This document shows, one piece after another, positions 6,863 to 46,260 of a stretch of DNA of 64,000 nt. The notes beneath the pieces are model-generated. The model ran no database searches and was not told the DNA's origin. It saw nothing but the letters and a program-made list of their open reading frames with translations. Source of the DNA: Candidatus Moraniibacteriota bacterium (GTDB lineage: Bacteria > Patescibacteriota > Minisyncoccia > Moranbacterales > UBA1568); the NCBI GenBank assembly GCA_016182385.1, contig JACPGV010000002.1:253190-317189 (forward strand), written 5' to 3'. The position numbers and the translations under genes were made by a program. The first letter of the stretch is position 1. Each line of letters opens with the position of its first letter.

Positions 6863-6892
6863 TGACAAAAAATAAGAACGTGCGGTAATATT
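6863..6892 (+). promoter_or_regulatory. sigma70-like promoter (TTGACA-18-TAATAT) for the 6939 gene
   Basis: TTGACA at 6863-6868 and TAATAT at 6887-6892. The -35 box lies inside one arm of a 12-bp inverted repeat. Confidence 0.35.
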
Positions 6893-9436: not shown

Positions 9437-11383
9437 ATGATTCATACTGATCAAAACGACATTACTTTTTTTGCTAAAACGAACTTTCGTAATCAGGATC
9501 GGGTGTTTGGTATCAAGACGGATGATCGACGTCGGCACATGTACGTCATCGGCAAGACTGGTATGGGAAAAACCAATCTTCTCGAGAATTTGGCGATACA
9601 AGATATTCAGAAGGGTCATGGTATTGCTTTTATCGATCCGCACGGTGATACGGCGGAAAAACTTATTCGAGCTATTCCAGCGAATCGTATCAATGACGTC
9701 ATTTATTTCAATCCAGCCGATCAAGATTTCCCCATTGCTTTCAATGTAATGGAAAAAGTCAGTCCCGAGTATCGGCATCTTGTGGCGTCCGGTCTGGTCG
9801 GCGTGTTCAAGAAGATATGGGCGGATTCATGGGGACCGCGTCTTGAATATATTCTCCGCAACGCCATTTTGGCACTCCTTGAATACCCTGGTTCGACACT
9901 TCTCGGCGTGACGCGTATTTTGGTGGATAAATCCTATCGTGACCGTGTTGTGGAAAAAGTGACCGATCCGGTGGTGCGGAGTTTTTGGGTGGATGAATTT
10001 TCCAAGTGGAACGACCGCGTACTTCAAGAAGTCATTTCGCCGATTCAAAACAAGGTGGGACAATTTTTGACGAGTTCGCTTATTCGCAATATCGTTGGTC
10101 AGACGACATCGTCTTTTGATGTGCGTGATGTGATGGATGGTCGCAAGATTCTCATCATGAATCTTTCCAAGGGGCGCATAGGTGAAGACAACAGCGCACT
10201 TCTGGGCGCGATGATCATCACCAAGATCCAACTTGCCGCGATGGCACGGGTGGATATTCCCGAAGATGATCGCAATGATTTTTATTTGTATGTCGACGAA
10301 TTTCAAAATTTTGCGACGGAATCATTTGCTAATATTCTTTCGGAAGCTCGCAAATATCATTTGAATCTTGTTCTCGCTAATCAATATGTGACGCAGATCG
10401 ACGAAAAAGTGCGTGACGCTATTTTCGGTAATGCGGGAAGCATCATTTCTTTCCGTGTCGGTGCGATGGATGCGGAGTTTTTGGAAAAAGAATTTGAGCC
10501 GGTATTTATTGCGAATGATCTTGTCAATTTGGAAAAATATAATATTTATCTCAAATTGATGATTGATGGTATCGCTGGAGATGCGTTTTCCGCCACCACG
10601 TTGCCGCCGATCAAATTGGAAGATGCCGGCAACGAAGAGAAGATTATTCATAGTTCTCGGGAGCGGTATTCGTCGAGTAAGATTGAGGTAGAAGACAAGA
10701 TTCGTCGGTGGAGTGGAATGCTTACGGCGGAAGAACGTCAAGCCTTCGCAGGACAATCATCGCGTGCGAGGGATGTGCAGACGACTGTTGAAAAAAATAC
10801 GTCGCAGAGGAAACAAATTCACTCTCCGTCGCCTATGTTTTCTCGAGGAAAAGAACACAAGCCGGTGTACCCACAAAAAAGAGAGGAGCATGTCGTGGTG
10901 ACACGTGAGACACCGATGGCTGAAATACCCGCGAACGAGATTGTTCCAGCGTCTCTGGAAAAGAAAGAAGAGGGAGAACAAAAAGAAAAAAATATTTCTC
11001 AAGGAGAAGAGAGTGTGGAAAAGAAGATGTATGCCGCTTTGTGTGCGACATGTGGTGTCGATATTGCCGTTCCTTTTGAACCGGATGGAAAACGGCCGAC
11101 TTTTTGCAAGGATTGTTTGCGTGATTATCAACGGGCGACTGCCAAAGTACGAAATGAGACAGTGCCGAAAGAGAATGTGGCATCGAATAACGAGAGAGCA
11201 AAGAAAAAAGATGTTCGCACGATGCAGCCGAAAGCGTATGTTTCTTCTGATGCGCCCATGTCGCTTGGTCAGGTGCAACACGTCGGTCCGAAGAAATTCA
11301 AAACATTACAGCGACGTCCTTCTGTCAATTTGCAAGAGGTGCGATCGCTTATTGATCAGGCGAGAAAAAACACAGAAGAGTGA
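9437..11383 (+). CDS. VirD4/TraG/TraD-like (type IV coupling protein family) P-loop ATPase, TM-less, with C-terminal K/E-rich linker and C4 zinc-ribbon
   Basis: Walker A is VIGKTGMGKTNLLENLA and Walker B is DFYLYVDEFQNF. A TraG-D_C-like region follows: …ARKYHLNLVLANQYVTQIDEKVRDAIFGNAGSIISFRVG. The C-terminal motif is CATCG…VPFEPDGKRPTFCKDC. Confidence 0.7.
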   Translation: MIHTDQNDITFFAKTNFRNQDRVFGIKTDDRRRHMYVIGKTGMGKTNLLENLAIQDIQKGHGIAFIDPHGDTAEKLIRAIPANRINDVIYFNPADQDFPIAFNVMEKVSPEYRHLVASGLVGVFKKIWADSWGPRLEYILRNAILALLEYPGSTLLGVTRILVDKSYRDRVVEKVTDPVVRSFWVDEFSKWNDRVLQEVISPIQNKVGQFLTSSLIRNIVGQTTSSFDVRDVMDGRKILIMNLSKGRIGEDNSALLGAMIITKIQLAAMARVDIPEDDRNDFYLYVDEFQNFATESFANILSEARKYHLNLVLANQYVTQIDEKVRDAIFGNAGSIISFRVGAMDAEFLEKEFEPVFIANDLVNLEKYNIYLKLMIDGIAGDAFSATTLPPIKLEDAGNEEKIIHSSRERYSSSKIEVEDKIRRWSGMLTAEERQAFAGQSSRARDVQTTVEKNTSQRKQIHSPSPMFSRGKEHKPVYPQKREEHVVVTRETPMAEIPANEIVPASLEKKEEGEQKEKNISQGEESVEKKMYAALCATCGVDIAVPFEPDGKRPTFCKDCLRDYQRATAKVRNETVPKENVASNNERAKKKDVRTMQPKAYVSSDAPMSLGQVQHVGPKKFKTLQRRPSVNLQEVRSLIDQARKNTEE

Positions 11384-23982: not shown

Positions 23983-24051
23983 TACCGTGGATGTTTATAA
24001 TACAAAAATTTTTTCGCTTTTTTTATTAAACTATTTAGAGAAAAATACTCA

Positions 24052-24085
24052 CTATACTTTTCTTGCAATTGCAAGAAAAGTATAG
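24052..24085. repeat. perfect 34-bp palindrome ctatacttttcttgcaattgcaagaaaagtatag (copy 1; extends to 36 bp)
   Basis: Exact self-complementarity seen in the sequence. An identical copy lies at 24794-24827. Confidence 0.8.
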
Positions 24086-24138
24086 TTCACTTAAAGAAAC
24101 AAAAGATAAAATCTCGAGAGTTATAAAAAGGTAAACGT

Positions 24139-24771
24139 ATGAAAAGAAAAAAAATGTCAATGGAAAATATGAGGAAAAGAATAGAGGGTTTTCTTTTTTC
24201 TGATAGCCCTTCTGTGACAGTGACAAAATTTCTTTTGGTGTTTATTGCTATTGGCGGAGTAGCTGTTGTTGGAGCTACTCTTCCGGGTCTTGTAAAAACG
24301 ATTGGTCATTTTTCTCGTATGTCAAAGAAAAGAAAGGAGTATTCGAAAGAGAAAATCTCGGCCTCGTTTGAGTATTTGAAGAAAAAACAGTTTATTAAAA
24401 TAATTAAAGAGAAAAATGGAAAGGTACAGGTAAAGTTGACTAATAAGGGAAAGTCGCGGTTAACGGAGTATTCTCTTGATATGTTGGAAATTCGAAAGCC
24501 GAAACAGTGGGATGGTAAGTGGAGGATTTTTATGTTTGATATTCCAGCGCACCCGAAAATATATCATTCCGCACGTGAGGCTCTACGAAGCAAGATAAAG
24601 AAACTCGGATTTTATCAAATTCAGAAAAGTGTTTGGATTTATCCGTATGAGTGCGAGGATGAGATTCTCTTTATTGCCGAGATGTTCAAGGTACAGAAAT
24701 ATATAGAGATTTTGACTGTTGAAAAATTATTGCATGAAAATTTTGTTCGCGAAAAATTCCCATTTTTATAA
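24139..24771 (+). CDS. membrane-anchored protein with PaaX-family/Cas2-VapD-fold-like C-terminal domain
   Basis: An N-terminal TM helix (FLLVFIAIGGVAVVGATL), then …WDGKWRIFMFDIPAHPKIYHSAREALRSKIKKLGFYQIQKSVWIYPYECEDEI. The pattern WxGxW…FDIP…R..LR..L…GF..LQxSVW is the one I associate with the PaaX middle domain. That assignment is from memory, not from a search. Confidence 0.45.
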   Translation: MKRKKMSMENMRKRIEGFLFSDSPSVTVTKFLLVFIAIGGVAVVGATLPGLVKTIGHFSRMSKKRKEYSKEKISASFEYLKKKQFIKIIKEKNGKVQVKLTNKGKSRLTEYSLDMLEIRKPKQWDGKWRIFMFDIPAHPKIYHSAREALRSKIKKLGFYQIQKSVWIYPYECEDEILFIAEMFKVQKYIEILTVEKLLHENFVREKFPFL

Positions 24772-24793
24772 ATTTTCTGTAAACTATATAAAA

Positions 24794-24827
24794 CTATACT
24801 TTTCTTGCAATTGCAAGAAAAGTATAG
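24794..24827. repeat. perfect 34-bp palindrome, copy 2 (extends to 40 bp, aaactatac…gtatagttt)
   Basis: Identical to the copy at 24052-24085. It sits 23 nt after the stop of the 24139 gene. Confidence 0.8.
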
Positions 24828-25054
24828 TTTGATGATAGGGTGAGGTAGCATGGATAGGGTGCGGTTATTTTTTTGGAGTTGGATGAAACAATAGTGTAAT
24901 TTCCTGATCACATGTTTTATTTTTTGTGATTTTCCGGTTTTATACCCTCCTGCATTCAACCTGTATTGAACCTACATTCAACATTCTATTGCAATAAAGT
25001 GTTTTTTGTGTCAGAATGTATTCGCCGTGTAGCGGCTTTTTTGTTTGTAGAGAT

Positions 25055-41265: not shown

Positions 41266-42261
41266 ATGTTTACGAAAAAAACCGTTATTATTGTTATTTT
41301 ATTGCTCGTCATGATTGTCGGGTGGTTTGTGTTTCGTTCGGGAAAAGAGGAAGAAACAGTACAAACAGAAACGGTGAAACGCGATACGGTAGTGGAAACG
41401 GTAAGTATCAGCGGGGAATTTGTTCCTCAAAAATATGCCGACATAGCATTTGCTGGTATAGGAACGTTAGAAAATATTTTTGTGCAAGAAGGGGAAGTTG
41501 TAGAAAAGGGAGATATTTTAGCGACACTTGATCGATCGGTGATTCGTTCACAGCTAGCGGATGCTCGTATAGCTTTGGCTATTGTTGTAGAAAATGAAAA
41601 ATTAGCGCGGCGTGACTGGAATGATTTAAAACCAGAAGAACGCGCCGCTAAGAAGCTTGCGAGTGAACAGGCACGAGAAAAAGTACGTACAATTGAAGCG
41701 CAATTGAGAGAAAGCGTTTTGCATGCGCCATTTTCCGGACAGGTATCAAAAATTGATATGCGAGCGAATGAAATTGCTGGCGCGGGGAAGCGAGTACTCC
41801 GTCTTGTAGAAGGAAATGATTTTGTTATTGAAGCGCGCGTTCCGGAATCGGATATTGTTAAAGTAGTGACGGGTATGGGCGCGAAGGTGACCTTTGATGC
41901 TCTTTCTTCAGACGATATATTTCAAGCAGAGGTCATTGAAATTGATCCTTCGGCAACGGTGGTACAAGACGTTGTTTCTTATGTGGTGACATTTCGTCTT
42001 ATTCAGAATGATGAGCGTCTCAAAGAAGGAATGACGGCTGACATAGATATCGAGACCGTCAAAAAAGAAAATGTTCTCTCTGTGCCATTTCGGGCGCTTG
42101 CCAAAGAAAAAGGTGTGTATTATGTGGAGGTGAAGCAGGGTGAGGAATTCGTGCGTGTACCGGTAACAATCGGTCTTGAGGGCGATGAAGGTCTTGTGGA
42201 GATAACGAGCGGGCTACAAGAAGGTGATATGGTCACTATCGGTGCCAAGCAAAAGAAGTAG
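41266..42261 (+). CDS. efflux transporter periplasmic adaptor subunit (HlyD/MacA family)
   Basis: A signal anchor, a coiled coil (ADARIALAIVVENEKLARRDWNDL…AREKVRTIEAQLRE) and beta-barrel segments. It precedes an ABC ATPase. Confidence 0.7.
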   Translation: MFTKKTVIIVILLLVMIVGWFVFRSGKEEETVQTETVKRDTVVETVSISGEFVPQKYADIAFAGIGTLENIFVQEGEVVEKGDILATLDRSVIRSQLADARIALAIVVENEKLARRDWNDLKPEERAAKKLASEQAREKVRTIEAQLRESVLHAPFSGQVSKIDMRANEIAGAGKRVLRLVEGNDFVIEARVPESDIVKVVTGMGAKVTFDALSSDDIFQAEVIEIDPSATVVQDVVSYVVTFRLIQNDERLKEGMTADIDIETVKKENVLSVPFRALAKEKGVYYVEVKQGEEFVRVPVTIGLEGDEGLVEITSGLQEGDMVTIGAKQKK

Positions 42262-42263
42262 GT

Positions 42264-42986
42264 ATGTCTCTTATTGTCGCAGAACATCTTTCCAAAGTGT
42301 ATGACAACGATGGTGTAAAAACACGCGCCCTTGACGACGCTACTTTTAGAATTGAAAAAGGAGAATTTGTTTCTATTATGGGACCGTCCGGGTCTGGCAA
42401 ATCAACGCTTATGCAAGTGCTGGGATTGCTTGATCGGGCGACTGATGGGGTATATACCCTTGAAGGAAAAGACATCAGTCAGTTTTCTGATGATGAATTG
42501 GCGATATTACGTAACAAGAAGATCGGTTTTGTCTTTCAAGCGTTCAATCTTCTCCCAAAGACAACGGTGTACGAAAATGTTGAGTTGCCGCTTTTGTATG
42601 ATGATCTTGTAATGGAAGATAATGATAGTCGGGTGAAAGCGGCACTTGAGGCTGTCAGTATGTCACATCGTATCAAATATTTTTCTAATCAGCTTTCTGG
42701 TGGTGAAAAACAACGTGTGGCCATCGCGCGCGCCTTGGTAAATGATCCGGAAATTATTTTTGCTGATGAGCCGACCGGCAATCTTGACTCCAAATCTGGA
42801 TTGCAGGTGATGCGTATTCTTCAAAATCTCAATGAGGCCGGCCGAACTATTATTTTGGTGACACATGAAACGTATACGGCCGAGCACGCCAAAAGAATTT
42901 TACGCATGAAAGACGGGCGTATTGTGGGCGATGAAAGAGTCGCTGCTCGCCGCTTTGCCTCCGCCGAACACCATCTCTTAAAATAA
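42264..42986 (+). CDS. ABC transporter ATP-binding protein (MacB/LolD/FtsE-like)
   Basis: Walker [12 protein letters not shown]-loop, signature [15 protein letters not shown], and Walker [13 protein letters not shown]. Confidence 0.9.
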
Positions 42987-42989
42987 CCA

Positions 42990-43010
42990 CTTAGAGGCTA
43001 AACCTCCAAG
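42990..43010. repeat. REP-like imperfect palindrome CTTAGAGGCTAAACCTCCAAG (copy A; reverse complement of copies B and C)
   Basis: An 8-bp stem, CTTRGAGG/CCTCYAAG, separated by three A or T. It lies 41 nt upstream of the Y1 transposase ATG. Confidence 0.7.
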
Positions 43011-43050
43011 TGCGCACATTACGGATCTATGGTAAAAATGAAAAAAACAT

Positions 43051-43719
43051 ATGAGAAAAACATCATTTGTCAATAACGGGATTTACCATATTTATAATCG
43101 TGGTATAGACAAGAGAGCGATAATCATGGATCGTGATGATGCAAAGAGATTTTTTCAGAGTATGGTTGAATTTAATACGATTAATCCAATAGGAAGTATT
43201 TTTCAGAATTCTTTCCGTAAGCAGAAGAAAAAACTTGGAGGTTTAGCCTCTAAGGAGGACTTTGAAGAGGGTAAAAAACTTGTTGATATTATTTGTTATT
43301 GTGTTAACGTAAATCATTTTCATTTTATATTAAGACAGGTAGAAACGAGGGGGATTGAAAAGTTTATGCAGCGTCTTGGCACGGGATATACGATGTATTT
43401 TAATGAGCGATACGAGAGAAGTGGCTCCTTGTTTCAAGGAACATTTAAATCAATTTTTGTTGGAACTAACGAATATCTTCTGCGTTTAAGTGCTTATGTA
43501 AATTTGAATTTCCGTGTTCATGGATACGATAAGGATGCAATGCTACTCATTCATTCCAGTTGGGATGAGTATATTGGTAAGAGTAAAGAAAAGTATTGCG
43601 AAAAAGATGATGTGCTCGGGCAATTTCGTAAAAAAGAAGATTATGTAGACTTTGCAAAGGATGCATTGGTTGGGATTCTTGAAAGGAAACAGTTAGCGAA
43701 AGATTTGTTGATGGAATAA
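43051..43719 (+). CDS. Y1 (HUH) transposase-like protein, IS200/IS605 TnpA / RAYT-like
   Basis: N-terminal GIYHIYNRGIDKRAIIMD, the HuH motif NHFHFIL and a downstream Tyr-containing helix (…GTGYTMYFNERYERSG…). About 220 aa, typical of this family. Confidence 0.6.
   Translation: MRKTSFVNNGIYHIYNRGIDKRAIIMDRDDAKRFFQSMVEFNTINPIGSIFQNSFRKQKKKLGGLASKEDFEEGKKLVDIICYCVNVNHFHFILRQVETRGIEKFMQRLGTGYTMYFNERYERSGSLFQGTFKSIFVGTNEYLLRLSAYVNLNFRVHGYDKDAMLLIHSSWDEYIGKSKEKYCEKDDVLGQFRKKEDYVDFAKDALVGILERKQLAKDLLME
43234..43254. repeat. REP-like palindrome CTTGGAGGTTTAGCCTCTAAG (copy B, inside the transposase CDS)
   Basis: Identical to copy C. In frame it encodes …LGGLASKED…. Confidence 0.7.
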
Positions 43720-43723
43720 AATC

Positions 43724-43744
43724 CTTGGAGGTTTAGCCTCTAAG
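43724..43744. repeat. REP-like palindrome CTTGGAGGTTTAGCCTCTAAG (copy C, 5 nt after transposase stop)
   Basis: The exact inverted partner of copy A. Confidence 0.7.
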
Positions 43745-43760
43745 TAATGGAGTTGAAAGT

Positions 43761-45002
43761 ATGAAAATATCTGATCCGATAAAAATTTCTTATCGTTCCC
43801 TCACGGCTTCTAAAATGCGGTTTTTTCTCACGGTGCTGGGTATCGTGATCGGTGTCGCGGCGGTTATTATGGTGATGGCTATTGGTGCAAGCGCTCAACA
43901 ATTGGTATTGGCGCAAGTTGAAAAAGTTGGATCACATCTTATTGGTATTTTACCGGGCGCTTCAGAGGAGGACGGTCCGCCGGCCGCTGCTTTTGGTGTT
44001 GTTACGACAACTTTCATTAACGATGATCTGAAAGCGCTTCGCGAACGACGCAATATTCCTCATTTGGTAGCGATTTCTGGTTATGTTTCTGGATCAGCGA
44101 CTATTGAATCGGGTGCGGAATCTTTGGAAGTGAGCTATCAAGGCGTTTCTCCGGATATGATTGAGGTGGAATCGATTGAGGTAGCAGAGGGACGATTCTT
44201 TTTTCCTGAAGAAGAATCAAATTTGGCACGAGTAATTGTTCTTGGCGCGATTCGTGCTAAAGAATTTTTTCCTGATCGTAATCCGATCGGAGAAACGGTC
44301 AAAGTGAAAGATATTCCTTTTCGAGTCGTTGGTGTTTTGAAGGAGCGTGGTTCAACGGCGTTTTCCAACCCTGATACGCTTGTCTTTGTGCCGCTTGAGA
44401 CAGCGCAAAAGCTTTTGCTTGGTATTGATTATCTTAATTTTGCCCGCGGAAAAGTTGATACATCGGAAAACGTTGATCGCACAGTAGAAGACATCAATAT
44501 TCTTTTGCGCGATCGACACGATATTGAGGAAGGAGAAGAAGCAGATTTTTCTGTTCGTAACACAGCGTCGGCACTGGAAGTACTGACGCGTATCACTAAT
44601 ATTTTGAAATATTTTTTGACGGCTATCGCGTCTATTTCGCTTGTGGTGGGCGGCGTGGGAATTATGAACTCCATGCTTATTGCTGTTTCTCAGCGGATAC
44701 GAGAGATCGGTTTGCGCAAAGCTGTCGGTGCGCGACCACAACACATCCTGACACAGTTTCTTATTGAATCTTCCTTTGTGACACTCTTGGGAGGGTTCTT
44801 GGGCATAGTACTCGGTATCACGCTTTCTTTTTTGGCGGCAGTCATTATTCCGCGATTGGGATATGAATGGGAATTTATTGTGCCGATCTCGTCTCTTGGC
44901 ATCGGTTTTGGTGTTTCATTTGCTATTGGCATCGTGTTTGGTTTGTATCCCGCCTTTACCGCGGCTAAAGTGAGTCCTATGGAAGCTCTTCGTTATGAAT
45001 AA
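43761..45002 (+). CDS. ABC transporter permease, MacB-like (MacB periplasmic core domain + FtsX 4-TM)
   Basis: N-terminal TM, a large periplasmic domain, then the FtsX-family C-terminus (…SISLVVGGVGIMNSMLIAVSQRIREIGLRKAVGAR…). GGAG RBS. Confidence 0.8.
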   Translation: MKISDPIKISYRSLTASKMRFFLTVLGIVIGVAAVIMVMAIGASAQQLVLAQVEKVGSHLIGILPGASEEDGPPAAAFGVVTTTFINDDLKALRERRNIPHLVAISGYVSGSATIESGAESLEVSYQGVSPDMIEVESIEVAEGRFFFPEEESNLARVIVLGAIRAKEFFPDRNPIGETVKVKDIPFRVVGVLKERGSTAFSNPDTLVFVPLETAQKLLLGIDYLNFARGKVDTSENVDRTVEDINILLRDRHDIEEGEEADFSVRNTASALEVLTRITNILKYFLTAIASISLVVGGVGIMNSMLIAVSQRIREIGLRKAVGARPQHILTQFLIESSFVTLLGGFLGIVLGITLSFLAAVIIPRLGYEWEFIVPISSLGIGFGVSFAIGIVFGLYPAFTAAKVSPMEALRYE

Positions 45003-46260
45003 TATCATCAAGAAAAAATACACGGCGTTTCTTTTTGCCGTACGCACCATCCGTACTCATAAGGTTCGAACGACTTTGGCGTTGCTTGGTGTGGTCATTG
45101 GCGTGTTTGCTGTCGTTGTGGTGACGGCGCTTGGAGATGGTGTCAAAGGTTATATTTTGGGCCAAGTGGAGAGTTTTGGTTCCAGTCTTATTCAGGTAGA
45201 AGTGAAGGTACCTAATACCGGTACGATGTCGAGCGAAAATGCCTCGGGACGTACGCAAGGAACACAAATTACAACCCTCGTTCTTGATGATCGTGAGGCG
45301 ATAGGAAAATTACCCAACGTAGAGGCGACCTACGCCGGAACTATTGGTCAAGAAAAAGCTTCTTTTGGCTCTGTCAACAAACGAATATTGCTTTTTGGTG
45401 TCAGTGCCGATGCGCCGCGCGTTGATGAGAGACTGACATTACAGGCGGGCAGATTTTTTACTGATGATGAGGATGATAACATGGATCGCGTGGCGGTTTT
45501 GGGTGCGGAAATTAAAGAAAAATTTTTTGGTCTAGGGAATGCTTTGGGAGAGACTATAACGATCAAGGGAGAAAAATATCGTGTGATTGGTGTTGTAGAA
45601 CCACGTGGAACAGTGGCCTTTTTCAATCTTGATTCTATGGTATACGTGCCCGTACAGACATTATTGACCAATATTCTCGGTATCGACTATGTGCAGATGA
45701 TATCCGTCAAAATGAGTGACGGCACAAAGGATAAGGAGACTGTTGCCGACATGGTTGCTTTGCTGCGAATGCGACATGATATCGATGACCCTCAAAAAGA
45801 TGATTTTGCTGTGACATCGACGAAAGAAGCGCAAGAAACTCTTGCTGATGTATTGGGGGCGGTGAGCATTCTTTTGCTTGCTCTTACTTCTATTTCGCTG
45901 GTGGTGGGTGGCGTGGGAATTATGAACGTGATGTATGTTTCGGTTGCCGAGCGAACCAGTGAAATTGGTTTACGCAAAGCTCTCGGCGCCAGATCGGGGA
46001 ATATTTTGGCCCAATTTTTGACTGAAGCGATGATCATTACCGGTATAGGAGGGATAGTAGGAATTCTTCTTGGGGTTGTCGTCGTCATTTTATTGACGAA
46101 TATTTTTATTTCTTTTGGATTTGACGTGCGACTTTCTTTTAGCGCCCGGTCTCTTTTTCTTGGCGCCGGTTTTTCCATGGCGGTGGGATTGTTGTTTGGT
46201 ATTGCTCCGGCGCTCAAGGCCGCGCGACTTTCACCTATGGAGGCATTACGACGTGATTAA
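44995..46260 (+). CDS. ABC transporter permease, MacB/FtsX family (paralog)
   Basis: The same architecture as the gene at 43761, with …SISLVVGGVGIMNVMYVSVAERTSEIGLRKALGAR…. Confidence 0.8.
   Translation: MNNIIKKKYTAFLFAVRTIRTHKVRTTLALLGVVIGVFAVVVVTALGDGVKGYILGQVESFGSSLIQVEVKVPNTGTMSSENASGRTQGTQITTLVLDDREAIGKLPNVEATYAGTIGQEKASFGSVNKRILLFGVSADAPRVDERLTLQAGRFFTDDEDDNMDRVAVLGAEIKEKFFGLGNALGETITIKGEKYRVIGVVEPRGTVAFFNLDSMVYVPVQTLLTNILGIDYVQMISVKMSDGTKDKETVADMVALLRMRHDIDDPQKDDFAVTSTKEAQETLADVLGAVSILLLALTSISLVVGGVGIMNVMYVSVAERTSEIGLRKALGARSGNILAQFLTEAMIITGIGGIVGILLGVVVVILLTNIFISFGFDVRLSFSARSLFLGAGFSMAVGLLFGIAPALKAARLSPMEALRRD

Follow-up and report, generated by a model that had tools for sequence, protein, structure and literature searches.

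Between the ATPase and permease genes of an HlyD-ABC-MacB operon in a 64,000-nt stretch of a Candidatus Moraniibacteriota genome (GenBank assembly GCA_016182385.1, contig JACPGV010000002.1, positions 253,190 to 317,189; this whole stretch is the window, and its first letter is position 1) lies a gene for a single-tyrosine (Y1) nuclease of the HUH type that is accompanied by copies of one short palindrome. The protein is probably a relative of the repetitive extragenic palindrome (REP)-associated tyrosine transposases (RAYTs) that is kept by selection, belongs to a clade specific to Patescibacteria, has its cognate hairpins almost confined to its own gene, and is an old resident of the genome. 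Each gene of the family carries such 'private' palindromes at up to four fixed places, namely the 5' leader, two in-frame positions in surface loops of the protein, and a position just after the stop codon; the window holds three of the four. The unit consists of the following features.

42988 to 43012, minus strand: upstream hairpin at its full 25 nt (CACTTAGAGG...CCAAGTG, extending to CACTTGGAGGTTTAGCCTCTAAGTG on the minus strand), its 21-mer at 42990 to 43010.
43051 to 43719, plus strand: gene for the Y1/HUH single-tyrosine nuclease, 222 residues (Pfam Y1_Tnp).
43234 to 43254, plus strand: in-frame hairpin at family site 1, encoding L62-G-G-L-A-S-K68.
43312 to 43323, plus strand: HUH motif N88-H89-F90-H91, with H89 and H91 invariant in the family alignment.
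43495 to 43509, plus strand: catalytic tyrosine motif Y149-V-N-L-N153, with Y149, N151, L152 and N153 invariant in the family alignment.
43519 to 43548, plus strand: family site 2, where the hairpin has been lost in the window (residues 157 to 166, GYDKDAMLLI, after the tyrosine helix).
43724 to 43744, plus strand: downstream hairpin, beginning 4 nt past the Y1 stop codon and ending 16 nt short of the MacB start.

The repeated 21-mer, CTTGGAGGTTTAGCCTCTAAG, forms an 8-bp stem with one G.T pair and a 5-nt loop. It has exactly three exact matches in the window, at 42990–43010 on the minus strand and at 43234–43254 and 43724–43744 on the plus strand, with no fourth at up to three mismatches across the 64 kb; in 100 dinucleotide-preserving shuffles of the window there were no matches. 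An earlier note on this DNA had described these three copies, and its account of them and of their positions is correct. The strand of the 23-mer that has the G.T pair folds, as single-stranded DNA, at −5.4 kcal/mol, and its complement, with an A.C mismatch in that place, at −3.9. The 21-mer of the upstream copy, which occupies the family position 'up', lies 3 nt past the ABC ATPase stop codon (42986) and ends 40 nt ahead of the Y1 ATG; perfect inverted arms of 22 nt (42989–43010 and 43724–43745) surround the gene. The bases 5' of the three copies are CCA, AAA and ATC, with GTG(G) solely on the 3' side, within the stem. A scan of 42800–43900 with Rfam matched no RNA family at E ≤ 1. We rejected a terminator role, as the sole terminator-like match at a hairpin lies on the minus strand, uses the stop region of the ABC gene itself, and has no counterpart T-run on the plus strand; a promoter role was likewise rejected, promoter-like matches being found only at chance level. 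The hairpins are thus explained neither by an Rfam family nor by a plus-strand terminator.

A hairpin inside the open reading frame (ORF) is a trait of the whole family. Our sample comprised 80 metagenomic loci and several others, about 90 related loci altogether; hairpin counts refer to 83 of them and come from a strict finder of repeated hairpins in the locus DNA. Repeated hairpins of the form ACTTGG-N4-loop-N4-CCAAGT were found in 73 of the 83, occupying the upstream place in 69 loci, in-frame site 1 in 41, in-frame site 2 in 41 and the downstream place in 55; in several of the ten loci that appear hairpin-negative, peptides of the LGGxASK type are nonetheless encoded twice. The median distance from the upstream copy to the start codon is 20 nt, and that from the stop codon to the downstream copy 4 nt; the in-frame copies, at residues 56–66 (before the HUH motif at 88–91) and 145–160 (after Y149), are fixed in their reading frame (site 1, 40 of 43; site 2, 41 of 41). 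In the protein alignment, most homologues carry an LGGxASK-like peptide at two positions, about residues 62–68 and, following 'RVHQ', about residue 158, and the two copies covary from protein to protein (LRGSASK/LRGSASQ, FGNLVSK/FGNLVSK, LRSETPK/LKSETSQ). The site 2 hairpin is lost in the window and in its entire subclade (P0002 to P0007). Across the family the consensus is cACTTGG...CCAAGTg, with a conserved outer stem and a variable inner stem and loop, and 86% of the hairpins are perfect palindromes. The earlier note had thought a REP copy within the coding sequence unusual; here it is the norm, with each in-frame site filled in about half of the loci, and it has also been described for subclass 2.4 of the TnpAY1 proteins (PMC6006769). 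In one relative, L003 (GCA_964537075.1), each flank consists of two inverted hairpins fused into a REPIN-like doublet of 34–40 nt (9951–9984 and 10655–10694), and in-frame site 1 has decayed to SFGKVVIK.

It is the hairpin structure, not the peptide, that is under selection. In an alignment of 72 sequences, one hairpin per locus, all 11 stem pairs showed compensatory changes, and doubly changed cells numbered 185, against 50 in shuffles. Paired cells amounted to 94.8%, against 73% in column shuffles and 29–42% with the partner slid, a percentage that is inflated by ascertainment in that the sequences had been picked by the hairpin finder; this bias touches neither the covariation seen at homologous positions nor the copies found beyond the ORF. 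We therefore rejected LGGxASK as a protein motif, given the copies beyond the ORF and the covariation of the stem.

Copies within a locus evolve in concert. Over the inner 11 nt, copies from the same locus are 98% identical, and 84% of pairs fully so, against 42% and 1% between loci. All three copies in the window share the one G.T imperfection, which points to copying rather than to independent selection for pairing; the window hairpin, CTTGGAGG/CCTCTAAG, is intermediate between a G-C state (in L005 and L091) and an A-T state (in L093). Three loci whose proteins are 90–95% identical (L046, L056 and L062) have the loops GCC/GCC, GGC/GGC and GGA/TCC at two copies, so that in each genome a change present in one copy is present in the other as well. 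From site to site, the loops are oriented at random (upstream against downstream, 26 inverted and 23 direct), and imperfect pairs on the coding strand comprise 17 G.T and 13 A.C; this lack of sense-strand bias, in small numbers, argues against selection on mRNA alone. The earlier note had suggested ongoing activity or remodelling of the gene by its REPs, and of this the copying stands, as something still copies hairpins, seen in the shared G.T of the window and the shared loop changes of close relatives; a fresh insertion does not. Paralogues on one contig carry different hairpins. Second, divergent Y1 paralogues, 26–50% identical to the window protein, lie on the same contigs in L057 (3975–4676), L061 (4605–5266) and L058 (7330–7355), and have hairpins of their own, for example TTGACCTAAAC...GTTTAGGTCAA and ATGTCAAAG...CTTTGACAT, placed on the gene's flanks or at site 1.

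Within the TnpAY1 proteins, this one falls in a class-2-like (RAYT-like) clade from Patescibacteria. Its match to Pfam Y1_Tnp (PF01797; residues 76–151) scores 28.6 bits against a cut-off of 23, and Pfam detected no helix-turn-helix (HTH) domain. The proposal that it is a Y1/HUH protein was borne out, as NHFH (residues 88–91) and Tyr149 fall in invariant columns and the closest fold is TnpAREP. All 83 loci keep both NH[YFI]H and the Y---N-type motif Y[VI]N[LKM]N. An AlphaFold (AF2) model built on the family alignment has a predicted local distance difference test score (pLDDT) of 81.9 and a predicted template modelling score (pTM) of 0.80; its top match in the PDB by Foldseek is 4ER8_A, E. coli TnpAREP with a REP hairpin (E = 1e-5, target TM-score 0.63), followed by the TnpA structures of IS608 and ISDra2. 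In the model, the site 1 peptide of the window protein is predicted to be a disordered loop (pLDDT below 50 at residues 51–73) between helix A and the HUH strand. Homologues number more than 1600, of about 210–230 residues and 55–72% identity, with Moranbacteria, Kaiserbacteria and the 'Patescibacteria group' as the named sources, and one is labelled 'REP element-mobilizing transposase RayT' by JGI. An exhaustive profile search returned 982 clusters (at 50% identity) at E ≤ 1e-30 and 9,945 at E ≤ 1e-10. The ratio of non-synonymous to synonymous substitution (dN/dS) is 0.07–0.11 in close homologue pairs, which indicates strong purifying selection on the protein.

More distant members differ at the same two sites. 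In P0349, P0361, P0317 and P0269, the tyrosine motif is YINGN or YVNGN, and insertions of 20–45 residues at site 1 or 2 contain internal peptide repeats (KSDF..KSDF, GKYPELSS-GYPELSS, FRSE..FRSE and GVPTAK..GVPTAK); judged by these repeats, the insertions are probably arrays of translated hairpins. Several family members in the representative library, for example P0381 (profile positions 63–221), P0357 (64–218), P0281 (1–164) and P0308 (78–212), have profile matches whose ends coincide with site 1 (about 63–76) or site 2 (about 156–164); either their contigs may break at the repeats, or the genes may be truly truncated at hairpins.

The Y1 gene sits between the ABC ATPase and MacB permease genes of its host operon, with which the unit is probably co-transcribed; the placement given in the earlier note was exact (ATPase stop at 42986, permease start at 43761). 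The operon genes are as follows.

41266 to 42261: HlyD gene, left of the unit.
42264 to 42986, plus strand: MacB-type ABC ATPase gene of the host operon, outside the unit (Pfam ABC_tran).
43761 to 45002, plus strand: first MacB/FtsX permease gene of the host operon, right of the unit (Pfam MacB_PCD and FtsX).
44995 to 46260: second MacB/FtsX permease gene, right of the unit.

The unit has long resided in this genome, inherited vertically and kept by selection, and is no fresh insertion. At the corresponding ABC|MacB junction, two relatives, L003 and L005, have Y1 orthologues (64% and 69% identical) with hairpins of the same type, and the upstream genes for RecJ, RNase H and HlyD are also present in both. 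Since their neighbouring proteins are only about 68–70% identical to those of the window, the insertion must be old, and the recent insertion proposed by the earlier note falls. That note had also named, as signs of an old domesticated gene, orthologous operons with the gene in the same place and a genome with no further copy of the 21-mer; the same-place orthologues were found, and the 64-kb window holds no extra copy. Its view that the unit interrupts an operon agrees with what we saw in three further relatives (L086, L087 and L088; ABC ATPase 80–82% identical), in which ABC and MacB are uninterrupted: the operon is the same, the ABC stop abuts or overlaps the MacB start, and there is no trace of a hairpin. 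Overall, the ABC ATPase is 78–82% identical in relatives both with and without the Y1 unit. The exact ATPase protein is recorded as 'Candidatus Moranbacteria bacterium', in keeping with the earlier guess, made from the letters, at a genome like those of the Candidate Phyla Radiation (CPR).

In a neighbour-joining tree built from six concatenated host proteins, the operons that hold the unit do not form a single clade: with 100% bootstrap in each case, L003 is placed beside the empty L087, and L005 beside the empty L088 and beside L090. Such a pattern requires that the unit was either gained three times at the one site or cleanly lost three to four times. A clade with 98.5% support unites the Y1 proteins of the window and of P0002 to P0007. 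Two of its members, P0006 and P0007, have unrelated gene neighbourhoods but keep flanking ACTT[GA]GAGG...CCTC[CT]AAGT hairpins, meaning that the hairpin-gene-hairpin unit has relocated as a whole. The other 80 loci (44–58% identity) are all in contexts other than this operon. Copy number is low, with one Y1 gene in the 64-kb window and, on the contigs of relatives, divergent paralogues only. The junction holds other small genes in relatives, a 114-residue EamA-like membrane protein upstream of the Y1 gene in L003 (9597–9941) and, replacing the Y1 gene in L089 and L090 (4749–5252), a 167-residue hydrophobic protein with no Pfam match, and so looks like a hotspot for gene gain.

Away from the nuclease gene, copies are rare. 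The other 63 kb of the window hold none, and the flanks of the related loci hold 15 real copies in 693 kb (about one per 46 kb), some of them REPIN-like doublets and some inside unrelated ORFs, on either strand. Doublets distant from the Y1 gene lie at 6881–6924 in L082, 12899–12936 in L007 and 4422–4457 in L051; as the first is inside an ORF of 1855 residues, the element can land in other genes. Among 185,579 GTDB representative genomes, which do not include the source genome, the 21-mer has one exact match (L001, 4333–4353), in a Rhodobacteraceae metagenome-assembled genome (JADGFD010000001.1); we take this as coincidence, because about 0.3 chance matches are expected for a 21-mer in 596 Gb on both strands.

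How such a nuclease might act on its hairpins is suggested by E. coli TnpAREP, which in vitro binds single-stranded REP, makes cuts on both strands and transfers strands (PMC3333891). By analogy, the Patescibacteria protein would bind the hairpin extruded in single-stranded DNA, and on either strand because the element is palindromic; DNA rather than RNA would be the active form. Tyr149 and the HUH-bound metal would then cut at the conserved outer stem, (C)ACTTGG/CCAAGT(G), or close to it, before rejoining the strands. Strand transfer between copies would keep those of one locus identical and would occasionally seed a copy elsewhere, and over long times the same chemistry may move, or cleanly excise, the whole hairpin-bounded gene.

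Several points weigh against a RAYT-like nuclease acting on private hairpins. The canonical 5' GT[AG]G foot or guide is absent from the family consensus and from the window copies, and the class-2 Pro is missing, the residue after Y[VI]N[LKM]N being N, D, F, Y, H or E and never Pro in the 83 loci. The NCBIfam equivalog for REP-associated tyrosine transposases (NF047646, REP_Tyr_transpos) scores 15.6 bits against a cut-off of 80. A sequence-profile search of the PDB with the family alignment found nothing at E ≤ 1 or E ≤ 10, so that the link to solved Y1 transposases comes from fold comparison. With so few copies away from the gene, the classical job of a RAYT, maintaining a genome-wide REP or REPIN population, is not obviously applicable. 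The biochemical precedent comes only from the E. coli enzyme (PMC3333891), outside the Patescibacteria clade, and enzyme-free template switching at palindromes could homogenise copies, flip loops and correct stems. To these is added the ascertainment in the pairing percentage described above. The earlier description of a REPtron-like unit therefore holds in part: the fold, the HUH and tyrosine residues and the gene's own flanking palindromes agree with it, and the lack of dispersed REPs, of GT[AG]G and of the Pro, together with the NCBIfam score, do not.

The RNA copy of the hairpins offers another account of their conservation. They might act chiefly as mRNA stem-loops in the stability, processing or translation of the Y1 gene, the post-stop stem throttling the upstream ORF and the leader and internal stems serving as autoregulatory binding sites, with the DNA nuclease reaction irrelevant. 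The tight spacing to translation signals fits this, as does the absence of a plus-strand T-run, which means that the hairpins would be transcribed within the operon; REPs near stop codons are said, by Liang, Rudd and Deutscher in 2015, to lower upstream gene expression in E. coli. We nevertheless find it unlikely that the hairpins act mainly in RNA: the imperfect pairs show no sense-strand bias, perfect palindromes make up most of the hairpins, loops are oriented at random, each paralogue has hairpins of its own that move together with the gene, rare copies fall in unrelated ORFs on either strand, and homogenisation would be left unexplained. A role of the leader and post-stop stems in RNA is compatible with a RAYT-like nuclease and does not exclude it. 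A peptide or operator origin, in which selection on the protein for an LGGxASK-type peptide produces the repeats incidentally, or they form a double-stranded operator for some other regulator, with no hairpin involved, would account for L-G-G-x-A-S-K at two positions in many homologues and for outer half-sites (ACTTGG/CCAAGT) shared family-wide. It is very improbable: the same element stands outside the ORF on both sides, its variable inner stem covaries, peptide changes follow base pairing (as the pairs L/K, L/Q and R/P), and the encoded segment is predicted to be disordered.

Whether the unit is instead an autonomous insertion sequence (IS) of the IS200/IS605 type, active now or recently by single-strand 'peel and paste' and with the flanking hairpins as its left and right ends, bears on the same data from another side. 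Its hairpin-bounded form with perfect inverted arms, the scarless empty junctions of close relatives, the joint occurrence of gene and hairpins in unrelated contexts and a Pfam Y1_Tnp score above the cut-off are all what such an element would show. We judge it quite unlikely, because the tyrosine motif is Y---N rather than the Y---Q of IS200, there is one copy in 64 kb, same-contig paralogues are divergent and carry different hairpins where IS200 copies are about 99% identical (PMC6006769), the junction is also occupied in relatives with much-diverged neighbours, and no tnpB is present; moreover, a dN/dS of about 0.1 persists over long divergence, and hairpins within the ORF make no sense as transposon ends. 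A RAYT-like nuclease with private hairpins also admits a stronger form, which we hold tentatively and would not expect to prevail: a self-contained REPtron that works mainly on the hairpins within and beside its own gene, these being continually rewritten by strand transfer in either orientation, the two translated ones included. If this were true, the gene would rewrite its own coding sequence and take its recognition sites along whenever it relocates; such a unit would stand, in minimal form, between IS200-type transposons and domesticated RAYTs, and would lend itself to the study of what RAYTs do where hardly any REP population has to be maintained.

Research into the cellular role of RAYTs and their palindromes, still an open question, has so far centred on Proteobacteria with hundreds of dispersed REPs. 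Here, about 1000 clusters (50% identity) in the very small genomes of CPR bacteria are under strong purifying selection with hairpins nearly confined to the nuclease gene, and such private hairpins separate the relationship between nuclease and hairpin from the question of REP proliferation. The family offers short, defined substrates for biochemistry, and the concerted changes and loop flips between close relatives are a natural read-out of activity. For annotation, LGGxASK-type peptides in these proteins are to be read as translated palindromes, not as protein motifs.

Elsewhere in the window, a perfect palindrome of 36–40 nt, (AA)ACTATACTTTTCTTGCAATTGCAAGAAAAGTATAGT(TT), occurs in two copies about 740 nt apart (24051–24086 and 24791–24830). 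Between them lies an ORF (24139–24771) whose 210-residue product matches the PaaX central Cas2-like domain (72.8 bits) and, weakly, a winged helix. It is a further case of a gene enclosed by a palindrome of its own, which is unrelated to the Y1 hairpin.

Among known systems, the nearest in architecture is the REPtron of E. coli K-12, with TnpAREP as its RAYT (4ER8; PMC6006769, PMC3333891). Like it, the window family has a single-tyrosine HUH fold, single or low copy number, mostly vertical inheritance with loss in some relatives, and a gene bracketed by its own palindromes, each paralogue having its own palindrome type. It departs from REPtrons in the rarity of copies away from the gene (none in the rest of the window, about one per 46 kb in relatives), in lacking the GT[AG]G foot, its conserved part being the outer stem (C)ACTTGG/CCAAGT(G), and in flanking copies that are not consistently inverted (26 inverted, 23 direct). 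The proteins differ too, with YVNLN and no Pro, FQ in place of 'W[EQ]', an extra helical tail of about 60 residues, and an NCBIfam equivalog score far below the cut-off (15.6 against 80 bits).

IS200/IS605 TnpA, as in IS608 and ISDra2, shares the Y1 HUH fold, Pfam Y1_Tnp, hairpins at both ends and clean empty sites in relatives. Its tyrosine motif is Y---Q (Y[IV]ENQ in subclass 1.1; PMC6006769), in contrast to the Y---N of the window family, which has neither multicopy near-identical elements (a single copy in 64 kb) nor tnpB, and whose hairpins are perfect palindromes on both strands, occur in the ORF as well, and have resided in one place for long. Closest in its published motifs, and compared by published description alone, is subclass 2.1 or TIRYT (Bertels group 1), with NH[YF]H, FQ and Y[IV]HLN the nearest set in the table of PMC6006769 and a protein of about 220–240 residues with a C-terminal extension. 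Subclass 2.1 is, however, reported to lack REP-like structures and to have HTH-type C-terminal domains and terminal inverted repeats (TIRs) of GGGG[AT][CG]A[CG], whereas in the window family hairpins are near-universal, Pfam detects no HTH and the Pro of the tyrosine motif is absent.

Full-text literature searches brought up no study that connects RAYTs or REPtrons with CPR bacteria; one paper mentions a K07491 match in an archaeon. REPtrons themselves are known already, as are in-frame REPs in tnpAREP genes, in TnpAY1 subclass 2.4 (Bertels group 4; Cyanobacteria and Bacteroidetes; PMC6006769). As in that subclass, palindromes lie inside the nuclease ORF in peripheral loops with the frame intact, and further copies flank the gene. 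In contrast to it, the window family has two fixed sites outside the HuH-Y core (before the HUH strand and after the tyrosine helix), in one frame and homogenised; subclass 2.4 has NH[IFV]H, WQ and YIxNNP where the window family has NH[YF]H, FQ and Y[VI]NLN, and the two differ in phylum and in REP type, that of 2.4 being long or 'double foot' with GT[AG]G. What sets the Patescibacteria clade apart is thus its phylum and motifs, hairpins with no GT[AG]G and almost no dispersal, and, within each gene, two fixed in-frame sites outside the core whose copies are kept alike.

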